NCBI GenBank assembly: GCA_021158525.1
Contig: JAGGUL010000031.1
Span: forward strand, 6,955-70,954
Source of the DNA: Candidatus Hydrothermota bacterium
GTDB lineage: Bacteria; Hydrothermota; Hydrothermia; B15-G9; DRBW01
Direction of reading: 5' to 3'
Length of the DNA stretch: 64,000 bases
Shown: positions 13,701 through 62,055 of the stretch, piece by piece
How positions within the stretch are numbered: position 1 is the stretch's first letter
Layout of the letters: each line of letters starts with the position of its first letter
The notes under the pieces: generated by a model
Seen by the model: the letters and a program-made list of their open reading frames with translations, nothing else
What the model was told of the DNA's origin: nothing
Databases searched by the model: none
Position numbers and translations under genes: made by a program

Positions 13701-14493
13701 GGTCAAATCCGGCCTTCACGACAGGGAATCCGTGGGACTGATAAACACAAATCTTTCCATTCTCTATCTGGAAAAGGGCAAATTCAAAGAGAGCCTCTCC
13801 CGTATAAAGAGGTCTATAAAAATGCAGAAAGAAATAGGCAGCAAGAGCAGCTATGTAACGGCTCTCTTCACCTATTACCAGGTCCTGAAAGAAATGGGAA
13901 AATACAGGCTTGCCGCCAGCAAGGTGTCTGAGGCCTTGCGGATCTCGAAGGAAATAGGAGCTCTGGAGGAAGAAGCCCTCGGCTATATATTCGCCGCAGA
14001 GGCCAATCTCTACCTCGGGAACACCGATGTGACCAGGGAATACTTGCAGGAAGCCGAAAAGCATGCTGAGGCGCTGAAGAACCCCGTCATCCTCGTGTCG
14101 CTCTATGAGACAAAAAGTCACTTTTACCGGGAATTGAAGAGGACGGAGAGGGCGCTCAATGAGATCAAAAAGGCGTTCAAACTGGCGAGGAAATATGAGC
14201 TCGCCACCGACATCCCCTATATTCTGAAGTCGATGGCCGAGATCGAATACCTGGCCGGCGATAGGGAAAAGGCAAGCGTCCACCTGAAGAAATGCATGGA
14301 TCTATGCGAGAAGTTCGGGATGTACTACCTGCTGTTGAAATGTCTGGCTTTTGCCCAGGAAACCGATCTCTTCCCCGAGAAGGCAGAGGAAATCAGGAAC
14401 AAAATCGAATCATTGTCTGAAGATATTCTGAAAGGGCTCTCGGAGAAGGACAAGGAAAATATACTCCGCACAATGGTCCCCGCTACTCTTTGA
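10741..14493 (+). CDS. GGDEF diguanylate cyclase fused to a STAND (AAA_16-type) NTPase and TPR repeats
   Basis: 1250 aa. The N-terminal GGDEF domain has an intact RYGGDEFAL active site. Walker A is VVISGEAGVGKTRLAREF and Walker B is LVLFFDDIHWADEASLE. After that there are roughly 600 aa of TPR-like helical repeats. Confidence 0.8.
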   Translation: MMDTTGKFTSAALLDDLTGLYNRRYFYLRLDEEIKRSSRYGRPFCLLLMDLDNFKLINDSFGHLRGDRVLAEFARLLRESVRETDIACRYGGDEFALILPETDRKSSLKVANKIMEALKKTYFGDDMPLRLSISIGISSYPEDGNTPEELFNASDHALYFAKREGGNRVKFVEKREMPAQETGLYLSPKFTGRDDELESLKKFFVKALQRKTTTVVISGEAGVGKTRLAREFLKVASLLGAEILKGKCYDFTKDIPYQPIKEALATFSEIDPLEIYSIIEEMPVLIRSEVLKILPFLDITRLKLSSEQIKTGREPDDKWRLFGGIKELFEGLERKRPLVLFFDDIHWADEASLELISFLARSIENKRILFLLAFREGEREKNPLRSFLNSFTKENNYHEIHLTRLKEEDVSRMLKSILGFNAPAELVNYLYTETEGNPFFIVEYVRRMADEGTISEIKKGSFQVETIKKTIPPGIKDIILARIAPLRDITKRILRIASVIGEEIDFNVLLAVSGINEGFLFDVLDELLKLKILREDLRLGTEVYSFTHGKIRDVVYEDMPHSLRKTLHRKIGNTLEEMSPDAEQIAEELAHHFLQAREEEKALKYLMMSARKAEKLYAFENALSHYEKALTLIPPSRKERLDIYMSMIPLLHVLGKRKREKFILEKAFALADEKDERYRELLRHRIKYLISLSSYHEAKELCESLLNLEKRAGKSPEYAETLMLLGKVHYLQAYYDTALKAFEEAAEIWKELGDNSSYAKTLTQTARILNKRGQSRKSTEYLSRAFEVLQRAGDRRGMAEIYCEQGIIHLDLSEFGKSREFFQKAHELYTEVGDKEGEARALHLEGNSILSVSDYEEALSKFERALEIRKAIDDKRGMAASLANMGLIYQSTGNNEKAIEYYRSAAAIAEEIGDRDSLQVILNNMGTIYLDESNLGEARKSLNKALKIAREIKDRSMESTVLINLGNIAWQKGKLDEAEKAFLDALKVKSGLHDRESVGLINTNLSILYLEKGKFKESLSRIKRSIKMQKEIGSKSSYVTALFTYYQVLKEMGKYRLAASKVSEALRISKEIGALEEEALGYIFAAEANLYLGNTDVTREYLQEAEKHAEALKNPVILVSLYETKSHFYRELKRTERALNEIKKAFKLARKYELATDIPYILKSMAEIEYLAGDREKASVHLKKCMDLCEKFGMYYLLLKCLAFAQETDLFPEKAEEIRNKIESLSEDILKGLSEKDKENILRTMVPATL

Positions 14494-36700: not shown

Positions 36701-36841
36701 AAGGATCTATCCGGGCAATTCATAAATCCCGAATCACCATCCAGATTGTCAAAATTGGCACAAGGGGATCCGCACGCCCCATCGGGGTACCTCAAGAAGG
36801 TTGACAAAATCGTTGAACACATCGATAATATTTACGCTCGC

Positions 36842-36915
36842 GCGCCCGTAGCTCAATTGGACAGAGCGGCGGACTACGAATCCGTAGGCTGGGGGTTCGA
36901 GTCCCTCCGGGCGCG
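36842..36915 (+). tRNA. tRNA-Arg (anticodon ACG)
   Basis: I folded the cloverleaf by hand. The acceptor is GCGCCCG/CGGGCGC, the D-arm is GCTC..GAGC, the anticodon arm is GCGGA-CTACGAA-TCCGT, and the T-arm is GGGGG-TTCGAGT-CCCTC. The discriminator is G and CCA is not encoded. Confidence 0.8.
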
Positions 36916-36925
36916 CTTTTTGCGT

Positions 36926-37387
36926 ATGACTGACGATGAGAAATTCATGAAAGAGGCCCTGGTAGAGGCCCAGAAAGCCCTGGAGGAGGGTGAGGTCCCT
37001 GTTGGTGCCGTTGTGGTCCACGAGGGCAGGATCATAGGAAGGGGACACAACATGACCGAAACCCTCAAGGACCCCACGGCCCACGCCGAGATAATAGCCA
37101 TCACCGCGTCAGCGGCATACCTCAAAAACTGGAGGCTCGAGGGCGCGAAGCTCTACGTCACCCTGGAGCCCTGCATCATGTGTGCGGGAGCCTCTGTGCT
37201 GGCTCGCCTCGAGGAGATCGTTTTCGCGCTGCCGGATCCCAAGTTCGGCGGTTGCGTTTCTCTGTATAAAATACCCGAGGATGCCCGCCTCAATCACAGA
37301 GTGCGCGTCCGACAGGGGCCTCTGTCCGAGGAAGTTCAAAAACTAATGAAATCATTTTTTCAAAAACTAAGGGCAAAAAAATCTTGA
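36926..37387 (+). CDS. tadA: tRNA-specific adenosine(34) deaminase
   Basis: CDA-fold zinc motifs HAE (TAHAEIIAI) and PCxxC (LEPCIMCAGA). The start is MTDDEKFMKEALVEAQKA, 10 nt after the tRNA. The longer ORF as called reads through the tRNA. Confidence 0.85.
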   Translation: MTDDEKFMKEALVEAQKALEEGEVPVGAVVVHEGRIIGRGHNMTETLKDPTAHAEIIAITASAAYLKNWRLEGAKLYVTLEPCIMCAGASVLARLEEIVFALPDPKFGGCVSLYKIPEDARLNHRVRVRQGPLSEEVQKLMKSFFQKLRAKKS

Positions 37388-37436: not shown

Positions 37437-38759
37437 ATGATAAGCTTTAAAAAAGCAATGTTAAGTGTTGCAGTATGCGCTCTCCTGGTCTCCCCTCTGT
37501 TCAGTCTGAACTGGGCTTTCTATGCTCCCTCCGGAAGAGACGGAGCCGCATTGATCTATGACGCTATGGACAATCAAATGGTGCTGTTCGGCGGAAGAGG
37601 TTATGTGGATGCCCATATGAACGATGTCTGGCTGTTAAACACAAATAATGCCTACCCGATGTGGACCAGGTTAGATTTAGACGATCCTCCTCCAGCGCGG
37701 AGATTTCCTGTCGCTATATATAGAAGTACCACTGACGAAATGGTGATATACGGCGGCAGAGATTATATTCAATTTTTCGATGACCTTTGGGTGCTGAAAT
37801 TAAGCCCTGGCAGCGAAGAGTGGGACCATTTAACCCCCTCGGGTGCAAGGCCGGACCCAAAATCTGAAGCATCGGCAATATACGATCCTGTAAACGATAG
37901 ACTCATATTGTTCGGCGGTTTCAATGGATCTGTCCACCAGAATGACCTGTGGGCTTTTGACTTCAACAGTGAGACCTGGGAACAAATATCCCCCTCAGGC
38001 TCGATACCTCCGGCGAGGAGAGGAGCAATGGCTGTTCATGATCCCAACGGCCATCGATTAATTCTCTTCGGCGGGTTAGGCGATGTGGATAATTTCAACG
38101 ATGTCTGGGTATTCGATCTGAACAGCGAGGAATGGACTCAGCTCAGCCCGTCTGGAACGATTCCACCCGGCAGGGGTGGAGGAGCAGCGTTCTTCGATTC
38201 GGACAATAACCGCCTGATAATCCACGGGGGTTGGGCTTACGATGGCGCATGGATTTACTATTATAACGACCTCTGGGCTCTCGATATGGAAAGCCTGACC
38301 TGGACCGAATTATCACCCGTGGGTCCCGCGCCCGAACCCAGGAGAAATATGGCCTATGCGTATGACACCCAGAATCACCGCCTGATAGTCTTCGGAGGAA
38401 ATCAGTACCCGAATTATTATTTCGGCGATCTATATGCTGTAGAAGATTGGGGTCCCACTGCTAAGAAAGAGTTTGACGTTCCCGAAACACGCGCTTCTGC
38501 CGTAAAGATTTACCCTAATCCTGGCCGTGGGCCCTTTAAGATAGAATTCTCCCTTGTGAAACCGGGACCGGTCACTATCAGTGTCATAGACCTGCAGGGC
38601 AGAACTCTGGACCAAATGCACATAAAGAACGCCACTGCCGGCCTGAACGTGTTCACATGGGACCCGAAAGCAGGTACAGAATTACCAGCTGGAACGTATT
38701 TCTTCCGTCTCGTAACGCCCTACAGGACAACCGTCGTCCCCTTCGAAGCCCTCAGGTGA
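37437..38759 (+). CDS. Secreted Kelch-repeat beta-propeller protein with a FlgD-Ig/T9SS-like C-terminal domain
   Basis: Signal peptide, then about six Kelch-like blades (repeated LILFGG...NDLWAFD, NDVWVFD, NDLWALD). The C-terminal 80 aa (IYPNPGRGPFKIEFSL...ISVIDLQGRTL...GTYFFRL) are the sorting-domain pattern. Confidence 0.65.
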   Translation: MISFKKAMLSVAVCALLVSPLFSLNWAFYAPSGRDGAALIYDAMDNQMVLFGGRGYVDAHMNDVWLLNTNNAYPMWTRLDLDDPPPARRFPVAIYRSTTDEMVIYGGRDYIQFFDDLWVLKLSPGSEEWDHLTPSGARPDPKSEASAIYDPVNDRLILFGGFNGSVHQNDLWAFDFNSETWEQISPSGSIPPARRGAMAVHDPNGHRLILFGGLGDVDNFNDVWVFDLNSEEWTQLSPSGTIPPGRGGGAAFFDSDNNRLIIHGGWAYDGAWIYYYNDLWALDMESLTWTELSPVGPAPEPRRNMAYAYDTQNHRLIVFGGNQYPNYYFGDLYAVEDWGPTAKKEFDVPETRASAVKIYPNPGRGPFKIEFSLVKPGPVTISVIDLQGRTLDQMHIKNATAGLNVFTWDPKAGTELPAGTYFFRLVTPYRTTVVPFEALR

Positions 38760-41664: not shown

Positions 41665-42741
41665 CTACTCCGCCCCGACGGGCGGCGGCACGACGAAGTC
41701 GAAGGTTGTGTCAGGCTCAGTTTCGCCCAGCCTGTAAATGTGACCCTTTATGAATCCAGTGGAATCGGCCTCGAAGAGCACAATGTGGTAAAAAGACCCA
41801 CCGTAGGGAGTTTCCTGAAGCGGACGCTTGAGCGGGGCGCCAGCTCCGCCGCTCACGATGTATGTAACGCCGTCATAGACGTAGCGGTCGTAGAGATGCT
41901 GGTGCGAAAAGAGCCCCAGGGAAACGTGATACTTCGCCAGCAGATCCGTGAACTCCTTCGTATGACTCTTCTCATAGTTCGGCTTGGGGTAATAATAGGG
42001 GGCACCGAGACAATGTTTTGTGTTGTGGTCGGGAATATATGGGGGCACGTGAGCCACAACAACTTTGAAAAGTCCGAGAGAATCGGCTTCTTTGAGCCTC
42101 TTTTCGAGCCATTTTATCTGTTTTTCCGAGAGGTAATAGTTGACGTAGTATCCGCCCTTCGGACTTTTTTTCGGACTCTGATGGTTGTCGACGAGAAAGA
42201 TAAACCTGTATCCCGCGTAGTCAAAATAATAATCACAGGGATCGTTAAAACGCCTCAAGCCCTCCGATACGTTAAAGGGATTGAGGAAGAATGCCTTCAA
42301 ATGGTTCCAGAACCCGCCGGGCGGACATATTTTTGATTGGAAGATCTTACGAAACATATAGGGCCCCTCCGGCGCATAAAGCTCGTGATTGCCTGCCACC
42401 GGCAGCAGGTTGACGTCGAAGGAGTCTATCATGGACACGAAGTGTTCGTACTCGCTCCTGTAACCTCGAAGGCAGAAATCACCGCCGTGAATGACGAAAG
42501 CGGGATTTAACCTTTCCAGCACACGGAGGTGCAACCTGAAAATGCTGTCAGCATCAGGGTCTCCCGGCCTGAAAGATTTCCTGCTGTCGCCGATAAAAGC
42601 AAACCTGAAGGGATAGGAAACCTCGCGGGACTTGATCCTCTCGATGACCTCGCTTACGGGATGATTTTCATAGGAAAGGCCCGTCCCAACCGCCGCAAAA
42701 ATCAAGATGAGAAGCAGGAATTTCTTGATCATGGCGAACAC
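41665..42741 (-). CDS. Secreted calcineurin-like metallophosphoesterase
   Basis: Signal peptide plus metallophosphatase motifs (FAFIGDSR, HGGDF, AGNHE, VAHVPP). Confidence 0.65.
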   Translation of the reverse strand: MFAMIKKFLLLILIFAAVGTGLSYENHPVSEVIERIKSREVSYPFRFAFIGDSRKSFRPGDPDADSIFRLHLRVLERLNPAFVIHGGDFCLRGYRSEYEHFVSMIDSFDVNLLPVAGNHELYAPEGPYMFRKIFQSKICPPGGFWNHLKAFFLNPFNVSEGLRRFNDPCDYYFDYAGYRFIFLVDNHQSPKKSPKGGYYVNYYLSEKQIKWLEKRLKEADSLGLFKVVVAHVPPYIPDHNTKHCLGAPYYYPKPNYEKSHTKEFTDLLAKYHVSLGLFSHQHLYDRYVYDGVTYIVSGGAGAPLKRPLQETPYGGSFYHIVLFEADSTGFIKGHIYRLGETEPDTTFDFVVPPPVGAE

Positions 42742-44452: not shown

Positions 44453-45532
44453 TTAATTTTCTACCTTTTCAAGGAATTTCTTCAGTTGCTCTATGCCCTC
44501 CTCGTATCGGAGGAGAACCGTGTGAACACAGCTCGCCCCCTTCTTCCTCCTCTCCATATTAGCGCTGAAATCCCTGACATCCTGACTAACTTTGAGCGAA
44601 TCACCCCAGGATATATTGACCACCTCGTCCCAGAAACGCCAGTTCCCCATAGCACTTTCGAATCTGAGGATCGCCTTCTCGAGGATTTTCTTCTCGTCTC
44701 CCTTCACCTGGTCGTAAAGCTCCGTCAGATAAACGATGGTTCCCTGAAGGCTCGTCCATTGAGGTTCGAGAGATGGACCGAGCCATCTGTAGCTGGGGCC
44801 GTCCGCCCACGAAACTGCCGGATTCTTGAGATCTGCAATGAACGCCTCATAGGCACGCTTCCCGCAGACGACGGATCTGTCGTTCAGAGAAATGGAATTT
44901 CTTTCGAAATTGCCCACGATCTTCCTGAGCACGCGTAAGGCAATGTCCCTGCTGAAGATCTCCTTCCTCGTGGCCTCATCGATAGGGCCGGGAACTTTCA
45001 TCTTCAGGAGATGAAGGTCGCCATTGGACAGCATCTCCTCGAGTCGATCGGGTCCGAGCCTGCTCCCGCTCTCCCCCAGGAGGGTGTTGCCCTCGATGCC
45101 GTAAACGATCTCGCTTTTATCGGAAATGAGCAGGATCGGATTCCCCTCCTTCACGTTTTCCACAGCGAAACGCAGAACTTCGTCTACATCGCGGGGCGCG
45201 ACAGTTTCGAAATCCATCGCGGCATTTTCCCTGAGGTTGTCCAGCAGATAATCCACATCGCTTCTGTAAACTCCAGGATCTGACCTTTTGTAGAGGAAAA
45301 GCGATGAGTAAAGGGAGAGCGCGTTGATCTCACCGACCTCCAGAACTCCTCTGTAAAACCGATGCAACTTATAAATGTCAACCAGGAAGTCATAGCGCGG
45401 CACACCCGGATTCTCGGCGTAGTCCTTAATGATCTTCTCCATCTCACCGATCGTGATTTTCCCGTCTGCTCCGAAGAGCAGAGCCCCAAAGACAAAAAAC
45501 AAACCAGCCGCCCACCTATTCAAAGCTCTCAT
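44453..45532 (-). CDS. Hypothetical secreted protein
   Basis: 359 aa with an N-terminal signal peptide. I recognise no domain. Confidence 0.4.
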   Translation of the reverse strand: MRALNRWAAGLFFVFGALLFGADGKITIGEMEKIIKDYAENPGVPRYDFLVDIYKLHRFYRGVLEVGEINALSLYSSLFLYKRSDPGVYRSDVDYLLDNLRENAAMDFETVAPRDVDEVLRFAVENVKEGNPILLISDKSEIVYGIEGNTLLGESGSRLGPDRLEEMLSNGDLHLLKMKVPGPIDEATRKEIFSRDIALRVLRKIVGNFERNSISLNDRSVVCGKRAYEAFIADLKNPAVSWADGPSYRWLGPSLEPQWTSLQGTIVYLTELYDQVKGDEKKILEKAILRFESAMGNWRFWDEVVNISWGDSLKVSQDVRDFSANMERRKKGASCVHTVLLRYEEGIEQLKKFLEKVEN

Positions 45533-51260: not shown

Positions 51261-51770
51261 TCAGAAGGCGTCGTAGGAGACTATTTCCGATAGAGGTTTC
51301 CTCGGCGGAGGTTCCGGGGACTCAGCGGGATAACCGATGGGAAGGAGGGCCACCACCTTGCAGCAGGATGGTATGCCGAGGATCTCCCTGACCTTTTCCT
51401 GCTCAAAGGCTCCGATCCAGCAGCTTCCCAGACCTTTATCGCACGCGGCGAGCACCATGTGCTCGACGGCAATGGCAAGGTCCACAGCATAGGCCGGAAC
51501 GCCGCAGGACATCACGTGACCGGGGTCAAGAGCAACGGCCGCTATAACCAGCGGGGCTTCGGCGATAAAATTCTGATCGAAGGAGGCCTTTGCCAAAGCC
51601 TTTTTCTTATCGGGATCCCTCACAACCACGAATTTCCACATCTGAAGGTTCTTGGCCGAAGGCGCCCAGCGGGCAGCTTCGAGTATCTCCTTCAAAATCC
51701 TTTCCTCAACCTCCCTGGACTTATAAGCCCTGATGCTCCTTCTCCTCCTGACCACCTCCATGAATTCCAT
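51261..51770 (-). CDS. Nitroreductase-family flavoprotein
   Basis: Begins RRRRSIRAY and is 169 aa. It has the nitroreductase fold pattern. Confidence 0.75.
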   Translation of the reverse strand: MEFMEVVRRRRSIRAYKSREVEERILKEILEAARWAPSAKNLQMWKFVVVRDPDKKKALAKASFDQNFIAEAPLVIAAVALDPGHVMSCGVPAYAVDLAIAVEHMVLAACDKGLGSCWIGAFEQEKVREILGIPSCCKVVALLPIGYPAESPEPPPRKPLSEIVSYDAF

Positions 51771-51788: not shown

Positions 51789-52199
51789 TCAAAAACTTTT
51801 GAAAACCCGGGCCAGGGGATGGCCCGGGGCTCTGACTTCCAGGTCGAGGAAAAATCCGAAGGGAGTCTCGTAGACCTCATAGCCCGCGTTTTCGAGGCGC
51901 TCTCTCGCCTTATCGAGGACTTCCCTGACGAAGGCCGGGTCGGCCTTGCTCTCAGAGAGATGTGCGAAGGAGTGAAGAACAATCCTCTTCGTGCCGTTCT
52001 TGCCCCCAAGCCACTTCAGGTTCTTTATGAGTTTGGTGACGATGGCGCCGCCTTTCTCCCTGTCCTCGGCTTCCACGTGGATAAACCCGACTATGGCATC
52101 CTCGATAGATGCTTCCTCGTGATCGCACTCGGCCTCGGGCAAAGCCTTCTTACCGAGTCTGTACTTGAAAAGCTCCGCGTGGATTGTAAGCAGTTTCAT
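51789..52199 (-). CDS. Free-standing homologue of the archaeal-type threonyl-tRNA synthetase editing domain (tRNA-Thr_ED / D-aminoacyl-tRNA-deacylase-like fold)
   Basis: 136 aa. It aligns along its full length with the N-terminal editing domain of archaeal ThrRS: MKLLTIHAELFKYRLGKKAL, AIVGFIHVEAED, IVLHSFAHLSESKADP and ETPFGFFLDLEVRAPGHPLA match the archaeal N-domain blocks. Confidence 0.65.
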   Translation of the reverse strand: MKLLTIHAELFKYRLGKKALPEAECDHEEASIEDAIVGFIHVEAEDREKGGAIVTKLIKNLKWLGGKNGTKRIVLHSFAHLSESKADPAFVREVLDKARERLENAGYEVYETPFGFFLDLEVRAPGHPLARVFKSF

Positions 52200-52210: not shown

Positions 52211-53122
52211 TCACCAGCTCGCTCCTACTGAGATCCTGTGCGAGGGGCCGAGAACATCCCGGTCGGCCACAAAAGCATAGTCAATGTTATAATGGCCCAG
52301 CCCCTGTGTCAACCTAATCCCGAAGCCAGCGCTGAAGATGTTCCTCTTGTCGTATTCGCTCATCTTGTGAATTAATCCGCCCCTCAATGCGAAAACCTCC
52401 GGAACAGGCCAGACCTCGACGCCAAATCTGACATCGGCAAGGGGCAGGCTGCTTTCCCCTGAGATGTCGAGCTCGGCGTTGATCCTCGACGCGAGAAGCG
52501 AATAGGATGCGCCCATCTGATAAGAGGGGGGGAGGGACTCCTTGGTGCCCGTTCCCCATTTCAGGCGGGAGATCAGGTCTCTTATGATCATTCCGAAGCG
52601 AAAGGCTCCCATAACTCCAAGGAAGGCAGCATCGGCACTTCCTCCAGAAACGTCGGCGCCCTCTATGTCCGTCTTGTTGAAGAGGAACTTGAGCCTTCCC
52701 CCAACGGCTATGCCCGGAGAGAACTCGCGGGCGAAAGCATAACTGACGCAGTTCTCGTTCCATTTTACCGTCTCGTCGTAGGCCTTAAGCCCCACGAACT
52801 CCCAGGAGAGAGCTCCACCCCCGTATCCCTTATCCTCCTGTGCGACAGCGGCAAAGCCGCCCTTGAGCGGAAGGTCCCCGAAATGGGCATACATCCCCGT
52901 GAAATCATAGCCCTTGAGGAAAGCCAACGCTGCGGGATTCCAGTAGGCGGATGGCGCGCCCTGGACCAGGGCAGTGAAAGCCCCTCCCATGGCCAACCCT
53001 CTTGCATCGACTCCCAAAAGGGGAAAGGCGCCTCTCGCCGAGGCCCCCTGTCCCCAGAGGGTGGCTGTGGTGATCACGAAAATCGCCGTTAACTTCCCCA
53101 TGGCAAGCATTCTCTTCCTCAT
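52211..53122 (-). CDS. Outer-membrane beta-barrel protein (PorV/FadL-like, possibly associated with the T9SS-like cargo)
   Basis: Signal peptide, an N-terminal motif AYWNPAALAF, alternating beta-strand pattern, and a C-terminal aromatic residue (SW). Confidence 0.5.
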   Translation of the reverse strand: MRKRMLAMGKLTAIFVITTATLWGQGASARGAFPLLGVDARGLAMGGAFTALVQGAPSAYWNPAALAFLKGYDFTGMYAHFGDLPLKGGFAAVAQEDKGYGGGALSWEFVGLKAYDETVKWNENCVSYAFAREFSPGIAVGGRLKFLFNKTDIEGADVSGGSADAAFLGVMGAFRFGMIIRDLISRLKWGTGTKESLPPSYQMGASYSLLASRINAELDISGESSLPLADVRFGVEVWPVPEVFALRGGLIHKMSEYDKRNIFSAGFGIRLTQGLGHYNIDYAFVADRDVLGPSHRISVGASW

Positions 53123-53134
53123 GATATTCCTCCT

Positions 53135-56100
53135 TTAACGCACAACGGCGAAGAAATCCTTTTTCTTTGACTGAGTTCCATCGGAATAACGCGCCTCAAC
53201 TATGTAGAGATAAACGCCGTTCTTGACTTCGCTTCCGGCAGCATTCTTGAGGCCATCCCAGGCTATTTCTCGGTCGCTCCCGGCCTGCAGATCGGCCTCT
53301 GCCCTCCAGACAAAGTTGCCCGAGAGGTTGTAAACGGATATCCTGACATGGGCATCTTTGGGGAGGGAGATCCTGAACTTGTTGTCAGTCAGGTTCATGG
53401 GCTTGGGTGCCGAGACCTCGAACTCCGGAGGTCCCACAAATACGGTGAACCTGACGGTATCGGAGCTGTTGCCAAAATCATCGAGCGAGAAGAGCCAGAT
53501 CTCGTTGGGAATCCCATAGGTCAGCTGTACGTCGGTAAAGGTGAAGGTGCTGTCTATAGCCGCCCTCGTCGAATCTCTGAACTCGGAGTTGACGAAAAGC
53601 ATGACGAGGGCATAGGGCTCTGTCTTCCCCGAAATGGTGAGGGTGTCGTTCGACGTCCGGTCGGGTATGTTCATCGAGGCCGGTGCGGGAGGCGGAACTG
53701 TGTCCACGAGATAGATGAACCTGTTTTTGACGAGAAGGGAATCTCCAACGGAATTCTTGGCACTCACGATTATATAGAAGGCCCCATTATCCGAGCCATC
53801 GACGGCCAGCGGGACATCGATATACCAGGCATAGGTACTGTCATTGAGCGTGTCGGCAACGCCATCGAGAGTATCGTTGAGGCCCTTCGTGAGATACACC
53901 GAGATATCCAGCAGGCCAGCTCCGACCCTGTCGCGCAAAACGGCGACCGCCCCATCGATCTGAACCCACACCGTGTCTCCATTTCCGACTTCGATGAGGT
54001 CACCGTGGGTCGGCTTCACATAGGTAATGGCACTGAGGGGTTTCCAGTAATAGAAATCAAGCGTGTCTATGCGAATATTGCTTGCGAGATCGCCGAACAT
54101 GCGGAAAAGATGGTAGGCCCCCTCGGCGACGAAATTGCCGACGATGTCGAGAAGGACGGTATCGCCCATAAACCTCGTTTCGAGGGCTACGCTATCATAA
54201 GCTGCGTCCCAGAGGGCAAAGCGAGTGTGAGACGTGTCAAGGCCCGACAGATCGCTGACCACGAAGAGAAAACTATCGGGCACTGTGTAAAGCGTGTCGC
54301 CCTCCTGAATCGATGCGAAGACAATCTGAGGCAAACCCGTATCCAAGAGAAAGTGGGATTCGTAGACATCTCCCGCCGTGGAATCATTGGCCAGAGGGAA
54401 AACCTTCATGCTGTAGGTGCCATTTGCGGTAAGAGGGCCTGAAAGTTCCAGGGTGAAAGTCCAAAGGCTATCTTCGGCGCTGAAACTCATCTGTCCGTCG
54501 ATGAGGGAATCAGATGGATCGAAAAGCTGTATGTAAGAATTGGCCGTATCTATGCCGCTTCCCGTCCTGTCCAGAACAAGGGCGGAGACCGAGCTCACCG
54601 AGTTCACAACAGCCCCATCTGCCGGAGAAGTCGAGATGACAATGGGCTCCCTGTCGGGTACGGTAAAGGTGTACACGAGATCTACCGAATGGCCGGCTCT
54701 GTCAGAGAGGTGGAGGGAAAGGCTGTATTCCCCGCCGGGGAAGCCGGCTCCGGGATCTATGTGCCAGACGAGGCGTCCCTCGCCGTTTCCGAGATCGACC
54801 CTCGAGAGATAACCGGGCACACCGGTGGAATCGGGGTAAAGCAGGACGAGGTAAGAAGCTTCCAGGTTAACCCCCGAAACCGCTGAAATCCCCTGATAGA
54901 GATCGCTTACCACCGCATAAACGCTGTCCCGGGGTACGACTCCGATGGCTCCAGAATCGGGATAGATCTCAACCACATGGGGCGGCCTCGAGTCGTAGAT
55001 AAAGACGAATGTATCGGGGTTCGAAGGGCTCAGAAGATGGCCTGCCAGATCCTGTGCGTAAACGAGAAAGCGATAGAGCCCATCGGCCGCTCCGTTGGGC
55101 AAAATGGGAGAGGAAAGAGTGAACGTTATAGTATCTCCCGAAAGGCTGTTCGCACCTGGGACAGCCTGACCGTTGTAGTTCTCCAATTCCACCCGGGTCA
55201 GCGTTGTGTCTGGATTTATTCCGCTCCCCGACTGATCCTCGAGAATGACCTGTACGAAATAAAGGGTGTCAGCGACGAAGCCCGAATCGGAAGGGTAAGT
55301 TGCCAAAACGTAAGGAGCGCTGACATCGAGCAGGAAAGACCAGCTCGAACTATCCTCGTTGAACACGTTATCGAACAGCCTGACCGAAATGGTGTAGTTT
55401 CCGCCGACTGTCAGAGGAGATGAGAGAATGTAATAAAGTGTGTCGCCGTGGGTTTCGGCCGTGCCAGGAAGGCTATCGCCATTTTCAGTGATCACATATA
55501 TCTCAGAGGCCTGGTAGTTCACGCCCGAGGGCTCCCTTCCGGAAACGACAGAGTCGCTCGGCAGTATCCAGACCCAGCTCACCTGTTCGCCAACGGTGGC
55601 ATTGGGTGCCGGGAAGCTTGCCACGACAACCGGAGGCCTCGTGTCGAATATAAAGGTGGTCTCCAGAGTATCGGAGTTCCCCGCGTTATCGGCGGCCGTC
55701 GCGGTTATAAAGTACCTGCCGTCATCGGAGCCATCGGTCCTCAGCGGAGGATAGGGAATAAATGTGACCGTGCTCTCTGCCATCGACGTGTTGCCGTTGA
55801 CAGGTCCCTGAGGTCCTGTCAAAAACAGGGACGAAAGGGATGTGTTGGGCCCCGAGAGCTGATCCCGCAGCACCATCAGCACGCTGTCTACCCTGCTCAG
55901 ATAGGAGGAATCCTCGGGGTACAGGTAAATCTGCGGGGGTGTCCTGTCGAGGGTAAACTGAGTGCTGTCGGTCCCTATGTTTCCAGCGGAGTCAACGGCA
56001 GTGACCACGGTGTAGTAATTGCCATCGGCTAAATCGAGAATGCCGCTTCCCGCCTTGCCGGACTTCGATTTCATGTTCGTGACTGCACCGCTCACGACAA

Positions 56101-59100
56101 AGAGAAGCGTATCGGGCTCAAGCCTTATGACCTGCCCTGGCACCAACGAACCATCCCTTTTGAGCGATATGTTGCTCGCGCCGAGATTGACCCCGGAAGT
56201 GAGGTCGCTTATCCTCGCCCACACCGTATCCATCTGAGCCAGATTCACGAGTCCCTGGGGATAGAACTCGACCGCGCTCGGGGCCTGAGTGTCATAGGTA
56301 AATCTCAGGGTCGTCGGGTTCTGGGGTTCGAGGGGCCAGCCGGCGGCATCGGTAGCTGTGACGACGACTGTGTAGCTGCCGTCGTCGGATCCGTCCTCAG
56401 AGAGCGGCACGGTGAATTGATAAACTGCGCTGTCTCCCTCGAGGCTCAGGCTGCCGGGCACCGATTGGCCTCCCGGGCCTATTACAGTCATGGTCACCGA
56501 TTCAACGCCGCTGCCGTTGCCGTCATCGAAACGCACAACCACGCGGTCGATGCTTTCCACGACATAGCTGCCGTCGGAAGGAAAGCTGGAAGAGATAACA
56601 GGGCCTTGGAGGTCGAGCAAAAAGCCCATGGACAGGGAATCACGGTTGCCGGCGTTATCGACTGCCCTAACGAAGACCTCGTAATTTCCATCCTCGCTCA
56701 GAGTGTCGCTCAGAACCCAGAAAACGGTATCTCCTGAGGTGACTTTCTGCCCCGATACGGGAAGGCTGTCCCTGTAGAGCCTGACGGAACTCGCCGAAAA
56801 ATCGATTCCGGAACTCTCCCTCCCGGGATTGATATCAGAGAGAACCGCGAAAACAGCCGATATAGGTGTTGAAACCAGCCCTCCCGATGGATTGACCTCT
56901 GCTATGACTGGTTTCTTGGTATCATAGATGAACTCCCCCTCAAGTGTATCTGTGTTTCCGGCGACGTCCGATGCCGTAAGGGTGACGTGATAGCTGCCGT
57001 CTTCAGTGCCGTCAGTCGCAAGCGGCGGGTCGGGGACAAAGATGATGACGGTATCCCTCACGTAGGTGCTTCCGGCCACCGCGCCGAGGGGACCCGTGAG
57101 CTGAAGGACAGCCGCGGACATGTCCACACCCGAAAGCTCGTCGTGGAGGACCGCGTAAGAGCTGTCAAGGACATTAACAAAATCAGAGTCTGAAGGATAA
57201 ATCGAGGCTATCGGAGGCCGGGTATCAAAGGTGAACGTCAGCGTGTCTTCCTCAACGTTTCCCGCACTATCGCGCATTTCAACCCGTATATCATAGATGC
57301 CATCGTCTTCTCCACCGGGCACGAGGGGCTCCGTGAGGACGTATTTCAGCGTATCGGGAGGAAGGCGGTTCAGGGTCCCCGCGACCAGAACCTCGTCCTT
57401 TAGCAGCCTCAGATCCGACGAATCGAGATTCACGCCCGATAACTCATCCCACATCGCGGTCCTTATATCGCTGAGTGTATCGGTAACATAGCTGCTATCT
57501 GAAGGAGTCGAAAACAAGAGAACCGGTGCCGTGCTGTCGTAGAGGACATAGAGCGTATCGGACGACGTTCCTCTGTTCATAACCTCGTCGTACGGAACGG
57601 CGAAAATGTAGTTATCGCCCTCCACGTAGGAAACGATGTAGCTGAAGTATCCCGTCAGAGTGTCGGCATTAGCCGTGCCGAGAAGATGGCCGTTCCTCAT
57701 GATATCAAGGCGGCTTCCGGGCTCGGAGAACCCCTTCAGGGTATCGGTGGAATCCGATGTGGGAGTTGAGAGTGAAAGCGTATCGAGATCAGGCGCTCCA
57801 GGGGGCAGGTTATCGATCCCCACCTCAGTGGTGGCCTGGAAACCATCGCCTGTCAGGGGATCGTAGAGGTCGACGACGATCGTATACGTGGTATCGCTTC
57901 CGGGCGCGAGATAATCGCCCTCATCGTTCTTCCCGTCGAAGGGGACAGAGTGAGTCCCTCCCGATTGGCTCTCGGACTCTATGAGGGTTCTGACCAGCGT
58001 CGTCGAATCGAAAACCGAGGAGGAATTGTAGATCTTGATCGTAACCTGGGCGTCCTCGGAGAGGTTATAGGAAATCGTAGCGACGTCGAACTGGCCGTCG
58101 TGGTTCTCAGGCGATATGACTGGTGGAGTCACGGTCAGGTCTGACAGGGAAGTCGGAACCGAATTTGCCACAACAGAACCCGTGAACTGGTCAAGGTTGT
58201 AGGCATCGTCCTCAAGGAATATCTTGTAAGTGTAAAGCCCATCGGGATAGGGGCCAGGCCCCCAGAGCACGGAATAGGTATCGTCGCCGTGAAATTCCTG
58301 ATAAAAATTGTGCTGAAAGACCTCATTGCCCGTGCTGTCAAGGATCGTTACGGTGGCGTTTCCGGTGAAAGCGTAAAGGTAAAGTATGGCAGTATCGCCT
58401 TCCGCCAGCTCATCGGCCCAGTAATCGAGGCTCTCAAACCTGTTGGAAAGGTCTCCAACCCTGTTGAGAAGGGCCGGTGTTTCCTCGACCGTGACATCGA
58501 CTATGGTGTTGTTCCAGTCTATGAAGTGAAGGGTCACGTTATCCGTGGTGAAATGGTGGGGCAGAAGGGTAAAATAAACAGGGAAAGGCGGCATCGTCGG
58601 GGAATTATCGGGAGTGGTGATGTACGTGTTGCCGGAGGCGGTTCCGATGACGGTCAAAACCGCTATCCTCCCCGAAGGCAGAAGATAGGAATCGTAGCCC
58701 GGCGGGCTGGTGTTGGACGCCGTGAATTCTATCCTCAGATAATCGTCAACCCCGTCGTTGTCAGGACTGAAGGGATTGGGAACCGCGGAAATAGAACTGA
58801 GAGAGGGAGGAGTCTTGTCGATGACCACCATACTGGAAACGGTGTCGATGGGTGTGCCCAGAGTGTCCCAGCCAAATATGAGGAAGGTATAGCTCCCGTC
58901 AGCATAGCCGCCCCCATCCCAGAGAAGGCTATGCGAACCGGAGCTCAGCAAAGTGCTGTCGATGAGAGTGTCGGGCGGAGAACCCTGGACAATGAGCCTT
59001 ATATAGGCCGGACCCGAAAGGCTGAAGCCGATCTGGGTTGTATCAGCCCTGCCGTCGCCGTTGGGAGAAAATGGATTGGGATTCACATAAACCCCGTTAA

Positions 59101-59164
59101 CCTGTGGCAGGGCGCTCAGAGCGCCCGCAACTGCCAAAAGGATCAAAAACTTACCCCATCTCAT
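53135..59164 (-). CDS. Giant (2009-aa) secreted cell-surface protein with many Ig-like/cadherin-like repeats and a FlgD-Ig/T9SS-like C-terminal sorting domain
   Basis: Signal peptide, then about 100-aa repeats (…DT.PP…S..P.D…SG.D…, repeated more than 12 times). The C-terminus (FRISLPKDAHVRISVYNLSGNFVWRAEADLQAGSDREIAWDGLKNAAGSEVKNGVYLYIVEARY) matches the CTDs of the BNR and Kelch proteins. Confidence 0.7.
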   Translation of the reverse strand: MRWGKFLILLAVAGALSALPQVNGVYVNPNPFSPNGDGRADTTQIGFSLSGPAYIRLIVQGSPPDTLIDSTLLSSGSHSLLWDGGGYADGSYTFLIFGWDTLGTPIDTVSSMVVIDKTPPSLSSISAVPNPFSPDNDGVDDYLRIEFTASNTSPPGYDSYLLPSGRIAVLTVIGTASGNTYITTPDNSPTMPPFPVYFTLLPHHFTTDNVTLHFIDWNNTIVDVTVEETPALLNRVGDLSNRFESLDYWADELAEGDTAILYLYAFTGNATVTILDSTGNEVFQHNFYQEFHGDDTYSVLWGPGPYPDGLYTYKIFLEDDAYNLDQFTGSVVANSVPTSLSDLTVTPPVISPENHDGQFDVATISYNLSEDAQVTIKIYNSSSVFDSTTLVRTLIESESQSGGTHSVPFDGKNDEGDYLAPGSDTTYTIVVDLYDPLTGDGFQATTEVGIDNLPPGAPDLDTLSLSTPTSDSTDTLKGFSEPGSRLDIMRNGHLLGTANADTLTGYFSYIVSYVEGDNYIFAVPYDEVMNRGTSSDTLYVLYDSTAPVLLFSTPSDSSYVTDTLSDIRTAMWDELSGVNLDSSDLRLLKDEVLVAGTLNRLPPDTLKYVLTEPLVPGGEDDGIYDIRVEMRDSAGNVEEDTLTFTFDTRPPIASIYPSDSDFVNVLDSSYAVLHDELSGVDMSAAVLQLTGPLGAVAGSTYVRDTVIIFVPDPPLATDGTEDGSYHVTLTASDVAGNTDTLEGEFIYDTKKPVIAEVNPSGGLVSTPISAVFAVLSDINPGRESSGIDFSASSVRLYRDSLPVSGQKVTSGDTVFWVLSDTLSEDGNYEVFVRAVDNAGNRDSLSMGFLLDLQGPVISSSFPSDGSYVVESIDRVVVRFDDGNGSGVESVTMTVIGPGGQSVPGSLSLEGDSAVYQFTVPLSEDGSDDGSYTVVVTATDAAGWPLEPQNPTTLRFTYDTQAPSAVEFYPQGLVNLAQMDTVWARISDLTSGVNLGASNISLKRDGSLVPGQVIRLEPDTLLFVVSGAVTNMKSKSGKAGSGILDLADGNYYTVVTAVDSAGNIGTDSTQFTLDRTPPQIYLYPEDSSYLSRVDSVLMVLRDQLSGPNTSLSSLFLTGPQGPVNGNTSMAESTVTFIPYPPLRTDGSDDGRYFITATAADNAGNSDTLETTFIFDTRPPVVVASFPAPNATVGEQVSWVWILPSDSVVSGREPSGVNYQASEIYVITENGDSLPGTAETHGDTLYYILSSPLTVGGNYTISVRLFDNVFNEDSSSWSFLLDVSAPYVLATYPSDSGFVADTLYFVQVILEDQSGSGINPDTTLTRVELENYNGQAVPGANSLSGDTITFTLSSPILPNGAADGLYRFLVYAQDLAGHLLSPSNPDTFVFIYDSRPPHVVEIYPDSGAIGVVPRDSVYAVVSDLYQGISAVSGVNLEASYLVLLYPDSTGVPGYLSRVDLGNGEGRLVWHIDPGAGFPGGEYSLSLHLSDRAGHSVDLVYTFTVPDREPIVISTSPADGAVVNSVSSVSALVLDRTGSGIDTANSYIQLFDPSDSLIDGQMSFSAEDSLWTFTLELSGPLTANGTYSMKVFPLANDSTAGDVYESHFLLDTGLPQIVFASIQEGDTLYTVPDSFLFVVSDLSGLDTSHTRFALWDAAYDSVALETRFMGDTVLLDIVGNFVAEGAYHLFRMFGDLASNIRIDTLDFYYWKPLSAITYVKPTHGDLIEVGNGDTVWVQIDGAVAVLRDRVGAGLLDISVYLTKGLNDTLDGVADTLNDSTYAWYIDVPLAVDGSDNGAFYIIVSAKNSVGDSLLVKNRFIYLVDTVPPPAPASMNIPDRTSNDTLTISGKTEPYALVMLFVNSEFRDSTRAAIDSTFTFTDVQLTYGIPNEIWLFSLDDFGNSSDTVRFTVFVGPPEFEVSAPKPMNLTDNKFRISLPKDAHVRISVYNLSGNFVWRAEADLQAGSDREIAWDGLKNAAGSEVKNGVYLYIVEARYSDGTQSKKKDFFAVVR

Positions 59165-59396: not shown

Positions 59397-59445
59397 GCTT
59401 GTGAGTGCTATTATGTTAACTGCCTTTTCTACGTATGTCAAGCCT

Positions 59446-62055
59446 TTAAATCTTATCATATACAAGCTCCGGGGTTTTCGCCTCGCCCTTCTCGGACCAC
59501 CTGAATCCCTTCTCGAAGACCCTGAGGCAGGCTTTCACGACTTCGGGATCATAGAGGATTCCGCTGTATTTCTTGATCTCCTCCAGGGCCTTATCGATAC
59601 CCATGGCGGGCCTATAGGGCCTGTGAGATGCCATGGCCTCCACAACATCGGCCACCCCCAGTATCCTGGCTTCGAGCAATATCTCCTCTCCCTTCAATCC
59701 CCTGGGGTATCCGGAACCGTCGAGCCTCTCATGGTGCTGAAGCACTATATCTGCCACGGGGCCATCGAAGTCGATGTTCTTCAAAATATCATAGCCCACC
59801 ACGGGGTGTGTCTTTATTATGTTCGTCTCGGCCTCGGTGAGAGCGCTTGGCTTGCTCAGGATCTCCGCGGGTATGTGTATCTTGCCTATATCGTGTAGCA
59901 TTCCCGCTACATAGATGGTCCTGACCCTTTTCTTGTCGAGTCCCATCTCTCGGGCGATCGCAACCGCAAGCTCAGCCACCTTCATCTGGTGGCCGGCGGT
60001 ATAGGGATCCCGTGCCTCAACGATCCTCACCACCATCTTAACCACATCGTCCAGTGTTTTCCTCAACCTTTTGTAACTTTCTCTAAGCATTTTCTCGCCC
60101 TTCTTTCTCTCACTCACATCTCTTATTATGGCCAGTGCCTCCCACTCCTCTTCGATCTGAACGGTTGTAACTGAGATCTCAAGGGGAACCGTTGAGCCGT
60201 CTTTTCTGAGGCCTATCACTTCCATGGTTCTGTTGGTGTGGGGTTTGTTTTTCCCCTCGAACATTGCCCTGCGGAATGCCTTAAGGAACCTCTCTCTGTC
60301 CTTTTCCGGAACGATCAACCTGTGAATTTCCCTTCTCAGCGCCTCTTTCTCGGCATAGCCGAAAAGCCTCTCGGCCGCCCTGTTCCACATCTTGACACGA
60401 CCTCTCGAATCCACCCAAATGATCGCATCCGAAGCCGACCGAGTGAGAAGCCTGTATCTTCTCTCCGACAGCCTTATGCTCTGTATAAGCTGAAGGTTTT
60501 CCATGGCAGTCCCGATGCCCGCTGCCAGTATTTCCAGCAGTTTCAGGTCATCTTCATCGAAGGCTTTGAGCCGGGGAGACTCGGCATTTATGACGCCCAC
60601 CACCCTGTCTCTGATCTTTATGGGAACAGCGATCTCCGAAAGCATCCCCTTTATACCCTCCACATAGCGGGGGTCCTTCCTCGTATCATTAACTATGAGG
60701 GGCTTCCTGTGGTTGGCCACCCAGACCGTTATACCCTTTCCGTCAAGGGGCAACCTTATATTGGCATGAGTTCCCCTGATGCTCTTGACGTAAAGCTCTT
60801 TTCTCTCGTCATCAACGAAAAAAACGCTGGCGTTCTCCAGATGAATTATGCTTACTATGGCGTCCAGGGCTATCTCGACCAGCTCGTCGATGTCCTTGAG
60901 AACAGGCATCCTGGTGATAATCTCATAGAGGGCCGAAAGCTTCTTCTCCAGATTACTTTCCTTTGTCCGATCTTTCCCAAAACAGATAGCTCCCTTTACC
61001 TTCGATCCCTCCTTGAGGGGAACGGCCATAAAGGAAACTACCAGAATGCCGCCATCTCTCTTGAAGATCCTGGTCTCACGCCGGATCTTTTCACCCCTGA
61101 GCACCGCTCCGAAAATCTGACGGGCTTTATCGAGCTCTTCCGGCAGAAGAAGCGACGAGAACGGCTTCCCGATCCACTCTCTGAGTTTGTAACCCGTTAT
61201 CTCCAGGGCCTTCCTGTTGGCGAAGAGAATCCTGCCCCTATCGTCCAGGATCAAAATCAGATCGTTGGCGTTTTCCACCACTGTCCTGAATCTTTTCTCG
61301 GAAGACTTTATCTTCTCGAACATCCTGCGGCGCTCGGTGATGTCCAGGAGGGTTCCAAGAACGGCGGGTTTTCCCTTATAGAGAACGCGGGTGCCCAGGA
61401 ACTCAACTTCGATCACCTTTCCGTCCTTCCTCAGCCCGCGGAAAGAGTACCTCACCTGATCCACCTGTCCCTCGAGCCGTTTCTTTGTGTTTTCCACCAC
61501 AAGCTCGCGGTCTTCGGGATGGGTAAGATCCAGTGGTCCAAGCCTGCCGACGATCTCCTCCCGCCTGTAGCCGAAGATCGCAGCCAGGGTGGGGTTCACG
61601 TATCGGAATAGGCCGTCCTGAACGAGATAGACCCCTACAAGGGCATTTTCCGAGAGTATCCTGAAGAGATCTGACGCCTCATCCCCGTCGCTCCCTTCCT
61701 TCTCGCTTTTAGCCTCTCTCAGGGCACCACAATACAGGTCTTCGGCGTCAGAAATACCTTCGAGAAAGATGACAGCGAGCTCGGCTGGATTCCCTCTGAG
61801 CGCCACGCCGTCGACAACACATCTTCTCTTATTGCATCTTTTCAGCTCATCCAGTATCAGACGTAGGTCATCATCGCCGAAGTGCAGGACATCCGTGATC
61901 TTCCTGCCCTCGAGGGTGTCAAGCCCGGTCATCCCCGCAAAAACCCTGTTGGCCAGGAGAATCCTCCCCTCTTTATCCATGAGGAAAAGAGGTTCCTCGA
62001 GAAAATCAAAAAGGAGCCCCAGGCTTTTCAGGTCAATTGAAGTCCCCACTTTCAC
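59446..62055 (-). CDS. Multi-PAS/GAF sensor protein with a C-terminal HD-GYP c-di-GMP phosphodiesterase domain
   Basis: 869 aa with several PAS/GAF-like modules. The C-terminal HD-GYP region reads HQMKVAELAVAIA...MLHDIGKIHIP...HHERLDGSGYPRGL. Confidence 0.8.
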   Translation of the reverse strand: MKVGTSIDLKSLGLLFDFLEEPLFLMDKEGRILLANRVFAGMTGLDTLEGRKITDVLHFGDDDLRLILDELKRCNKRRCVVDGVALRGNPAELAVIFLEGISDAEDLYCGALREAKSEKEGSDGDEASDLFRILSENALVGVYLVQDGLFRYVNPTLAAIFGYRREEIVGRLGPLDLTHPEDRELVVENTKKRLEGQVDQVRYSFRGLRKDGKVIEVEFLGTRVLYKGKPAVLGTLLDITERRRMFEKIKSSEKRFRTVVENANDLILILDDRGRILFANRKALEITGYKLREWIGKPFSSLLLPEELDKARQIFGAVLRGEKIRRETRIFKRDGGILVVSFMAVPLKEGSKVKGAICFGKDRTKESNLEKKLSALYEIITRMPVLKDIDELVEIALDAIVSIIHLENASVFFVDDERKELYVKSIRGTHANIRLPLDGKGITVWVANHRKPLIVNDTRKDPRYVEGIKGMLSEIAVPIKIRDRVVGVINAESPRLKAFDEDDLKLLEILAAGIGTAMENLQLIQSIRLSERRYRLLTRSASDAIIWVDSRGRVKMWNRAAERLFGYAEKEALRREIHRLIVPEKDRERFLKAFRRAMFEGKNKPHTNRTMEVIGLRKDGSTVPLEISVTTVQIEEEWEALAIIRDVSERKKGEKMLRESYKRLRKTLDDVVKMVVRIVEARDPYTAGHQMKVAELAVAIAREMGLDKKRVRTIYVAGMLHDIGKIHIPAEILSKPSALTEAETNIIKTHPVVGYDILKNIDFDGPVADIVLQHHERLDGSGYPRGLKGEEILLEARILGVADVVEAMASHRPYRPAMGIDKALEEIKKYSGILYDPEVVKACLRVFEKGFRWSEKGEAKTPELVYDKI

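Follow-up and report, generated by a model that had tools for sequence, protein, structure and literature searches.

The gene considered in this study lies at 51789..52199 on the minus strand of a 64,000-nucleotide (nt) stretch of DNA from a Candidatus Hydrothermota bacterium (GenBank assembly GCA_021158525.1, contig JAGGUL010000031.1, positions 6,955 to 70,954). I will refer to the whole of that stretch as the window. The open reading frame (ORF) runs from an ATG to a TGA stop codon and encodes a protein of 136 amino acids (aa), the translation being identical to that given in the first-pass annotation, an earlier reading of this DNA made from the sequence alone. The placement of the start codon at 52199 is backed by the N-terminus of the protein, where the pattern MKLL.I. 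is kept family-wide. The gene is a member of the free-standing tRNA-Thr-ED family, whose proteins resemble the editing domain that archaeal threonyl-tRNA synthetase (ThrRS) carries, and it falls within the clade of that family that bears a basic residue at position 131 (more narrowly, within the subgroup with the signature FLDL..R). This identity is secure, drawing as it does on the ORF, a profile match, the fold and the ratio of nonsynonymous to synonymous substitution rates (dN/dS).

The Pfam profile PF08915 (tRNA-Thr_ED), described by Pfam as the 'Archaea-specific editing domain of threonyl-tRNA synthetase', matches the 136-aa protein with E=9.7e-42 and 142.7 bits (cut-off 30.2), aligning protein residues 1-135 with positions 1-136 of the 137 in the profile. 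When the protein was compared by phmmer with the sequences of the Protein Data Bank (PDB), the only significant matches were the N-terminal editing domains (NTDs) of archaeal ThrRS, first that of Pyrococcus abyssi (PabNTD; E ~4e-17), then those of Methanocaldococcus jannaschii and Aeropyrum pernix ThrRS-2, the whole range extending from 4e-17 to 1e-9. The matching blocks are the same as those that led the first-pass annotation to claim block-for-block homology to the archaeal ThrRS editing domain, and the claim stands.

The fold agrees. A model of the protein built by AlphaFold2 from a 31-sequence alignment (pLDDT 90.1, pTM 0.86) was matched by Foldseek to structures of PabNTD with TM-scores of 0.88-0.92, root-mean-square deviations of 1.5-2.1 Å and 25-30% identity, the best superposition having a TM-score of 0.92 and a deviation of 1.8 Å. 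D-aminoacyl-tRNA deacylase (DTD) took second rank, with TM-scores of about 0.6-0.7, so the DTD-like fold that had been proposed for the protein is borne out. Nothing nearer to the protein than the archaeal NTDs was found among either the PDB sequences or the structures searched by Foldseek. The first-pass annotation had named profiles both of the ThrRS editing domain and of DTD-like families as a check; the former match lies above its cut-off, as described, and the latter did not appear, for a Pfam scan at E<=1 returned only tRNA-Thr_ED and four insignificant matches, with neither DTD nor DTD2 among them. Nor were the hallmarks of DTD, the SQFTL and cross-subunit Gly-cisPro motifs (PMC5802732, PMC3845328), seen on reading the 136-aa sequence.

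The gene stands alone, as had been claimed. It has its own stop codon, the nitroreductase gene that follows starts 18 nt later, and its product, unlike archaeal ThrRS, is not fused to catalytic or anticodon-binding domains. The NCBIfam models for threonine--tRNA ligase (97.5 bits, cut-off 484) and for Ser-tRNA(Thr) hydrolase (60.5 bits, cut-off 362) match only over their N-terminal ~135 positions. Nor is the gene the 5' fragment of a split thrS: the length of ~136 aa recurs in hundreds of homologues, and the clade has a signature of its own. It is not a chance ORF either, because dN/dS, calculated against a 93%-identical orthologue in a candidate division WOR-3 metagenome-assembled genome (MAG) from a hydrothermal sample (locus L001, the best match among those listed), is 0.048, indicative of strong purifying selection. 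This match to L001 also shows the lineage of the window to be WOR-3.

The family to which the gene belongs is large. A word-indexed search of 5.8 billion proteins found 691 near-full-length homologues, of which those listed are mostly 132-137 aa in length, carry PF08915 alone, and are 54-71% identical to the query (two near-identical copies excepted). Where NCBI provides a name, it is 'threonyl-tRNA synthetase editing domain-containing protein' (in Aminicenantes, Cloacimonadota, Zixibacteria, Bipolaricaulota and Deltaproteobacteria). When 185,579 species were scanned, one genome for each, the stretches that matched numbered at least 484, most of them from bacterial phyla that are anaerobic. 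Searched exhaustively with a profile, 1.84 billion representatives clustered at 50% yielded 980 clusters at E<=1e-3, archaeal ThrRS being counted among them; at E<=1e-10 there were 460, and the first full-length archaeal ThrRS (613-734 aa) stands in the ranking at ~1e-22.

From the species-level scan 80 loci were kept, and these together with the window make up the 81 loci compared below. They come from WOR-3, Ignavibacteriota/Melioribacteraceae, Bacteroidales (including a MAG of Paludibacter propionicigenes), Cloacimonadota, Aminicenantes, Thermotogae, Atribacterota, Caldiserica, Bipolaricaulota, Calditrichota, Marinimicrobia, Zixibacteria and Desulfobacterota, lineages that are essentially all anaerobic. 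Identity to the window protein is about 50-63% across more than 10 phyla, and the family seems to be restricted largely to anaerobic bacteria and archaea. Two of the loci (L023 and L027) are separate tRNA-Thr-ED loci from the same Melioribacteraceae MAG, S014_15, and may be paralogues unless the bin is mixed. The stand-alone copy, which the first-pass annotation took to be unexpected in a bacterium, is thus no surprise: besides the numbers just given, the family has a name at NCBI and a published description, to which I will return. What is new is the addition of a WOR-3 gene to a known, experimentally uncharacterised family.

In order to compare the stand-alone proteins with the editing domains of ThrRS residue by residue, the 150 best representatives were aligned to the family profile, with the key positions of the synthetase domain numbered according to PabNTD. 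The representatives split almost perfectly into two types. The ThrRS type has Tyr79-Pro80, Leu88, Tyr120-Lys121 and Glu134 in almost every representative. The stand-alone type has His76-Ser77 (numbered, as are all residues of this type, according to the window protein), and K59, K62, W63, K67, K85, R101 and T112 are common to the clade. The pair at positions 117 and 118 is variable in the stand-alone type (FL, FN, SC, TC, VC, MN and others), and position 118 is never Lys among the aligned representatives. Position 131 is Arg or Lys in nearly all stand-alone representatives, whereas Glu occupies the equivalent position in nearly all ThrRS editing domains. A free-standing kind distinct from the window's clade also came to light: P0206 and the cluster P0291-P0303 are stand-alone proteins of 137 aa with the canonical Tyr-Lys...Glu signature of the ThrRS editing domain, one of them labelled Candidatus Bathyarchaeota, though some, lying on short contigs, could be fragments of longer genes.

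Within the narrower set of 81 loci, which represent the subgroup of the window protein, 17 residues are invariant: E43, K59, K62, W63, K67, H76, F78, H80, L81, K85, T112, G115, F117, L118, P125, G126 and R131. Most of them fall in a few segments of the protein, all encoded on the minus strand. Residues 56-67 (KLIKNLKWLGGK; 51999..52034) form a family-specific helix with K59, K62, W63 and K67, positions that have no fixed residue in archaeal ThrRS editing domains (they are E, S, K and Q in PabNTD). Residues 75-82 (LHSFAHLS; 51954..51977) align with the active-site strand V78-S85 of PabNTD (VYPFAHLS), so that Pab F81, A82 and H83 have their counterparts in F78, A79 and H80, and the clade-specific H76-S77 takes the place of Y79-P80. 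Residues 112-119 (TPFGFFLD; 51843..51866) align without gaps to A115-A122 of PabNTD (APFGYYKA), the loop at the RNA-protein interface, Tyr120 being replaced by F117 and Lys121 by L118. Finally, residues 125-131 (PGHPLAR; 51807..51827) align with the C-terminal segment K128-E134, in which Glu134, a residue that acts across the subunit boundary in PabNTD, is replaced by R131. These last three equivalences (Tyr120/Phe117, Lys121/Leu118, Glu134/Arg131) are secure because the C-terminal half of the alignment is free of gaps and anchored on PFG and G...LA.

Much is nonetheless held in common with the archaeal domain: E43/D46, the whole FAHLS motif (F78-A79-H80-L81-S82, including the equivalent of His83), PFG (P113-F114-G115) and G126. 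The contrast is between this common core and the substitutions just described, together with the additional set K59, K62, W63, K67, K85, R101 and T112. I considered the possibility that the stand-alone proteins have gained positive charge overall for independent binding of tRNA. The numbers do not support this: the median pI is 7.1 in the stand-alone clade versus 7.7 in ThrRS editing domains, and the net charge is 0 versus +1, leaving only the local set of invariant Lys and Arg residues.

A neighbor-joining tree (midpoint-rooted, without bootstrap) groups the window protein with bacterial proteins of the FLDL..R subgroup, those of UASB270 (58% identity), Prolixibacter (50%) and Desulfobacterium autotrophicum (44%). 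The next group is a mixed clade of archaeal and bacterial proteins with Lys at position 131. Both of these groups with basic residues are separate from the ThrRS NTD, from ThrRS-ed, which carries an anticodon-binding domain, and from the archaeal proteins associated with SepCysS; the window protein is only 27-34% identical to ThrRS NTD and ThrRS-ed. The stand-alone proteins make up a distinct clade and are not a detached domain of ThrRS. The picture of a simple archaeal module in a bacterium, offered by the first-pass annotation, fits poorly with a stand-alone clade that has both bacterial and archaeal members and lies apart from the ThrRS editing domains.

Free-standing proteins of this kind were described by Mukai et al. 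(2017, mBio 8:e00561-17, PMC5424206), who named them 'tRNA-Thr-ED' and noted 'a wide distribution ... among prokaryotes'. Their proteins (Text S1, Fig. S4, Data Set S1) have the same stand-alone architecture of ~136 aa as the window protein. Three bacterial members in their data set, UASB270 GAK55471, Prolixibacter bellariivorans WP_025865235 and Desulfobacterium autotrophicum WP_012663148, share with it the signature LHSFAHLS...TPFGYFLDL...LAR, and archaeal members (methanogens, Thorarchaeota, DPANN) have a related signature ending in Lys. Mukai et al. observed in Text S1 that the residues recognizing aminoacyl-adenosine are conserved with the exception of the equivalent of Glu135 in the M. 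jannaschii domain (Glu134 in PabNTD); the window protein has the same difference, and nothing essential distinguishes it from their bacterial proteins. They suggested that the family hydrolyzes aminoacyl- or hydroxyacyl-tRNA. Their focus was on archaeal members associated with SepCysS, which keep the Tyr-Lys pair of ThrRS and are not of the window protein's type, and a follow-up in 2022 (PMC8762117), concerned with fusions to SepRS and the idea of Ser-tRNACys as substrate, treats the canonical type only. No context of SepRS, SepCysS or tRNA-Cys was seen among annotated ORFs of the window or among recurrent neighbours of the gene elsewhere. Two things are added here to the published description: that the equivalent of Lys121 has been lost, along with the family-specific set of invariant residues, and that the gene is recurrently paired with CobB, as described below.

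The genes surrounding tRNA-Thr-ED in the window, given here for context only, are as had been described, all of them on the minus strand. Upstream lie a giant surface protein of 2009 aa (53135..59164), with Ig-like repeats (Big_13/Big_3/FlgD_ig) and a CHU_C C-terminal domain of type IX secretion, and an outer-membrane protein of the PorV/PorQ family (303 aa, 52211..53122), whose NCBIfam score of 85.4 bits is just below the cut-off of 90. Downstream, 18 nt past the stop codon, is a nitroreductase-family protein of 169 aa (51261..51770; PF00881, E 6.8e-33). The gaps between the four genes are 12, 11 and 18 nt (12-19 nt in the first-pass annotation). The window as a whole is bacterial, as had also been recognized, with gatA, recR, dnaX, miaB and tadA present and the start of groES read directly. 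GC content is flat at 0.52-0.59 across 48-60 kb, and this uniformity around the locus offers no evidence for a recent island of horizontal transfer.

In order to assess whether this arrangement of genes is general, ORFs were called in the 80 loci and the window, and their products were compared all against all by BLASTP and clustered. The adhesin, PorV-like and nitroreductase neighbours recur only in L001, and the nitroreductase forms no cluster with genes of any other locus. Already in L011, another WOR-3 MAG, the neighbours are different. The position of the gene after those for the adhesin and the PorV-like protein is therefore a lineage-specific accident of gene order, carrying no functional signal, and the operon cannot serve as a functional link of the sort the first-pass annotation drew when it connected the gene to adhesin, barrel and nitroreductase or to envelope stress. 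The gene may have a promoter of its own: a promoter-like sequence, TTGACA-17-TAACAT, lies at 52312..52284 on the minus strand, where the PorV-like gene has its 3' end (the sequence falls within that gene), ~85 nt before the start of tRNA-Thr-ED, and it is also present in L001. A second copy (TTGACA, 17 nt, TAACAT) is found at 59413..59441 on the same strand, upstream of a tRNA-Asp and the adhesin gene. The scan for promoter motifs as a whole was not enriched over shuffled sequences.

PADLOC linked neither the gene nor its two small neighbours to anti-phage defence. No thrS, dtd or pth was found among the ~27 larger ORFs scanned with Pfam or NCBIfam in the parts of the window on either side of the block at 17.8-31.3 kb. 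Other genes of the window include those for V-type ATPase subunit I (1271..3262, minus strand), a RecQ-family helicase of 1141 aa with a long N-terminal extension (5153..8578, minus), a GGDEF-plus-TPR protein of 1250 aa (10741..14493, plus) and a PAS/GAF/HD-domain (HD_5) protein of 869 aa that adjoins the adhesin cassette (59446..62055, minus). ORFs of 358-558 aa at 14552..16228 (plus), 37437..38759 (plus), 41665..42741 (minus) and 44453..45532 (minus) have no NCBIfam match at E<=1e-10. Residues 62-212 of a mechanically called ORF (36746..37387, plus strand) match TadA, and a gene for tRNA-Arg(ACG), at 36842..36916, lies within that ORF. The true start of tadA is probably to be sought just past the tRNA gene, which would place the gene for the substrate directly upstream of that for its tRNA adenosine(34) deaminase.

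Elsewhere, only one notable partner recurs. This is a CobB-type NAD-dependent protein deacylase, a sirtuin of ~245 aa (Pfam SIR2, E 3.5e-46; NCBIfam subfamily 271 bits, cut-off 243). Its gene follows tRNA-Thr-ED, on the same strand, in 15 of the 69 loci that have at least 800 bp of downstream sequence (L013, L018, L021, L022, L033, L038, L047, L052, L055, L056, L065, L068, L075, L076 and L080), and in nine of the 15 the gap between the two genes is 0-8 nt. The pairs come from Cloacimonadota, Ignavibacteriota, Bacteroidales, Caldiserica, Marinimicrobia, Desulfobacteraceae and unclassified bins, at least six named lineages. Pairwise identities of the tRNA-Thr-ED proteins are correlated with those of their CobB partners (r=0.70, Mantel p=2e-4). 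When the window was searched with a profile made from these 15 CobB partners, no sirtuin turned up. Genes that adjoin tRNA-Thr-ED more rarely encode a SAM-dependent methyltransferase, NifX-like proteins, an MFS transporter and OYE/FAD oxidoreductases, and on the contigs of other members for which Pfam annotation was available the gene is surrounded by housekeeping genes (e.g., aspS, gyrA/gyrB, TsaE, YjeF). An association with 2-hydroxyacid dehydrogenase, which would have backed the idea of hydroxyacyl substrates, was suggested by its presence near two more distant members, but phmmer found it in just one of the 81 loci, and the association was rejected. In two Bipolaricaulota loci (L090 and L091, 10068..10411) a protein with a free-standing B3_4 domain is encoded ~4.7 kb downstream of the tRNA-Thr-ED gene; the editing domain of PheRS and the canavanyl-tRNA deacylase CtdA both have the B3_4 fold, and the proximity may be coincidence.

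What might the protein do? The chemistry of the archaeal domain provides a frame of reference (Ahmad et al. 2015, PMC4491819). In PabNTD, Glu134 of the partner subunit holds the alpha-NH2 of the substrate, Tyr120 lines the seryl pocket, residues 117-120 constitute the RNA-protein interface, and Lys121 positions the catalytic water, with the 2'-OH of A76 taking part in catalysis. Mutants lacking the lysine (K121M in P. abyssi, K116M in A. pernix) are inactive yet bind substrate. Ser is discriminated from Thr by main-chain atoms and the RNA-protein interface, Y120A and E134A being tolerated, and PabNTD acts also on Gly-tRNA (PMC4491819). Set against this frame, the alignment indicates that the scaffold binding adenosine and the ester (FAHLS, PFG) is kept in the window protein, while the charge at the alpha-amine site is reversed and the equivalent of Lys121 is lost.

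The reading I prefer, although the considerations for and against it seem to me evenly balanced, is that the protein would be an acyl-tRNA ester hydrolase acting in trans, its acyl pocket re-specified away from serine and toward substrates without a free alpha-ammonium group. A generic role as trans-deacylase is my best guess. The enzyme would hydrolyze the acyl ester at the 3'-terminal adenosine of an acylated tRNA, probably as a homodimer and with the assistance of the tRNA 2'-OH, by analogy with the NTD. Contacts with the aminoacyl-adenosine would be retained through FAHLS and PFG, and the acyl pocket would be remodelled by the changes Tyr120 to Phe, Lys121 to Leu and Glu134 to Arg. Its substrates might be alpha-hydroxyacyl-tRNA, in keeping with the suggestion of Mukai et al. 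(2017), or aminoacyl-tRNA with a blocked or modified nitrogen, ordinary L-aminoacyl-tRNAs being excluded electrostatically. Substrates lacking the amine are suggested because a cation replaces the carboxylate that binds it, Phe-Leu replaces Tyr-Lys, and the residues at 117 and 118 vary between subfamilies.

Several points weigh against this reading. The NTD can do without the side chains of Tyr120 and Glu134, both in its activity and in telling Ser from Thr (PMC4491819), so their replacement alone is no proof of a new specificity. The loss of the Lys121 equivalent could signify lost catalysis instead of a changed substrate. That R131 reaches the acyl site is a prediction from its alignment with Glu134. 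The stand-alone proteins are, as noted, not more basic overall than the ThrRS editing domains, a role in tRNA proofreading leaves the pairing with CobB unexplained, and a search of the literature for characterised members of the basic-131 clade turned up only the two papers of Mukai et al., both of them bioinformatic.

The first-pass annotation proposed that the protein clears Ser-tRNA(Thr), and canonical trans-editing of this kind, backing up or replacing the cell's own ThrRS editing site, is the rival that fares best, though I consider it quite unlikely. Homology and fold are shared with an NTD that performs this very reaction, FAHLS and PFG are kept, and the NTD, which tells Ser from Thr through main-chain atoms and the RNA-protein interface, tolerates Y120A and E134A. 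Against it, the equivalent of the lysine whose mutation inactivates both PabNTD and the A. pernix NTD (PMC4491819) is Leu in the window protein and never Lys in the clade. The replacement of Tyr120, Lys121 and Glu134 by Phe, Leu and Arg makes canonical editing unlikely, and the protein moreover lacks an anticodon-binding domain and scores far under the cut-offs of the NCBIfam models for Ser-tRNA(Thr) hydrolase and ThrRS. The family is also present in Bacteroidales and Desulfobacterota, whose own ThrRS would be the usual bacterial enzyme, edited by an N2 domain.

A second rival, which I find very doubtful, would make the protein a chiral or achiral proofreader in the manner of DTD, a deacylase of D-aminoacyl-tRNA or Gly-tRNA in anaerobic lineages. 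DTD and its animal paralogue ATD are indeed free-standing tRNA deacylases that act in trans and have the same general fold (the TM-score to DTD reaching ~0.7), and the activity of PabNTD on Gly-tRNA (PMC4491819) could be thought a precedent. Identity to DTD structures is just 10-15%, however, the Pfam scan found no DTD or DTD2 family, and substrates with a free amine are disfavoured by the Arg that occupies the place of the NTD's alpha-NH2-binding residue.

Equally doubtful is the notion that the protein is catalytically dead, a binder that sequesters the 3' end of tRNA or a nucleotide after losing the lysine that positions water. The precedent is K121M, a mutant NTD that is inactive yet binds its substrate tightly (PMC4491819), and the window protein has Leu at the same position. 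Against this, neither H80, which corresponds to His83, nor any other part of the pocket varies over more than 10 phyla, dN/dS is 0.05, catalysis by the NTD is largely assisted by RNA, and R131 or K85 could position the water instead.

The least credible of the rivals takes its cue from the sirtuin and would have the protein be no tRNA enzyme at all but a ribose-ester hydrolase partnering CobB, for example a deacylase of 2'/3'-O-acyl-ADP-ribose. In its favour are the recurrence and close spacing of the pair over at least six named lineages, the correlated identities, an analogous chemistry (the acyl group is esterified to the cis-diol of a ribose that has a 5'-phosphate beside it), a hydrophobic Phe/Leu pocket with an Arg, into which a phosphate and an acyl group without charge would fit, and the ADP bound in crystals of DTD (entries 3KO3-3KO5). 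On the other side, 78% of the loci, the window included, have no adjacent sirtuin, the correlation could be plain shared ancestry, and the residues that recognize aminoacyl-adenosine are conserved even though there is no adenine on the ribose that is acylated in O-acyl-ADP-ribose.

In sum, the observation of the first-pass annotation is confirmed and its interpretation is partly supported. The preferred reading, an acyl-tRNA hydrolase acting in trans, can be extended to the whole basic-131 clade in a form that I regard as rather unlikely: the clade would be an undescribed quality-control or repair esterase of anaerobes, in which the Arg or Lys at 131 would repel the alpha-ammonium group and acyl groups without an amine would be cleared from the 2'/3'-OH of ribose. 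Candidate substrates would be alpha-hydroxyacyl-tRNAs or N-acylated or N-alkylated aminoacyl-tRNAs arising from fermentative metabolism, or alternatively, given the recurrent pairing with CobB, O-acyl-ADP-ribose derived from the sirtuin. The variable residues at 117 and 118 (FL, FN, SC, TC, VC and so on) would tune acyl specificity among the subfamilies.

There is precedent for synthetase editing domains freed as independent deacylases. AlaX, the ProXp/YbaK family and CtdA (with the B3/B4 fold) embody the same concept, differing in that their folds are unrelated to tRNA-Thr-ED and their substrates have been defined by experiment. Free-standing editing domains (DTD, AlaX, ProXp, CtdA) have repeatedly proved to be guards of translation against specific metabolites. 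The gene in the window is an ordinary member of its family, but the changes in the active site, Lys to Leu and Glu to Arg, predict a specificity unlike that of any characterised member of the fold, which gives biochemists a well-defined target in this family.

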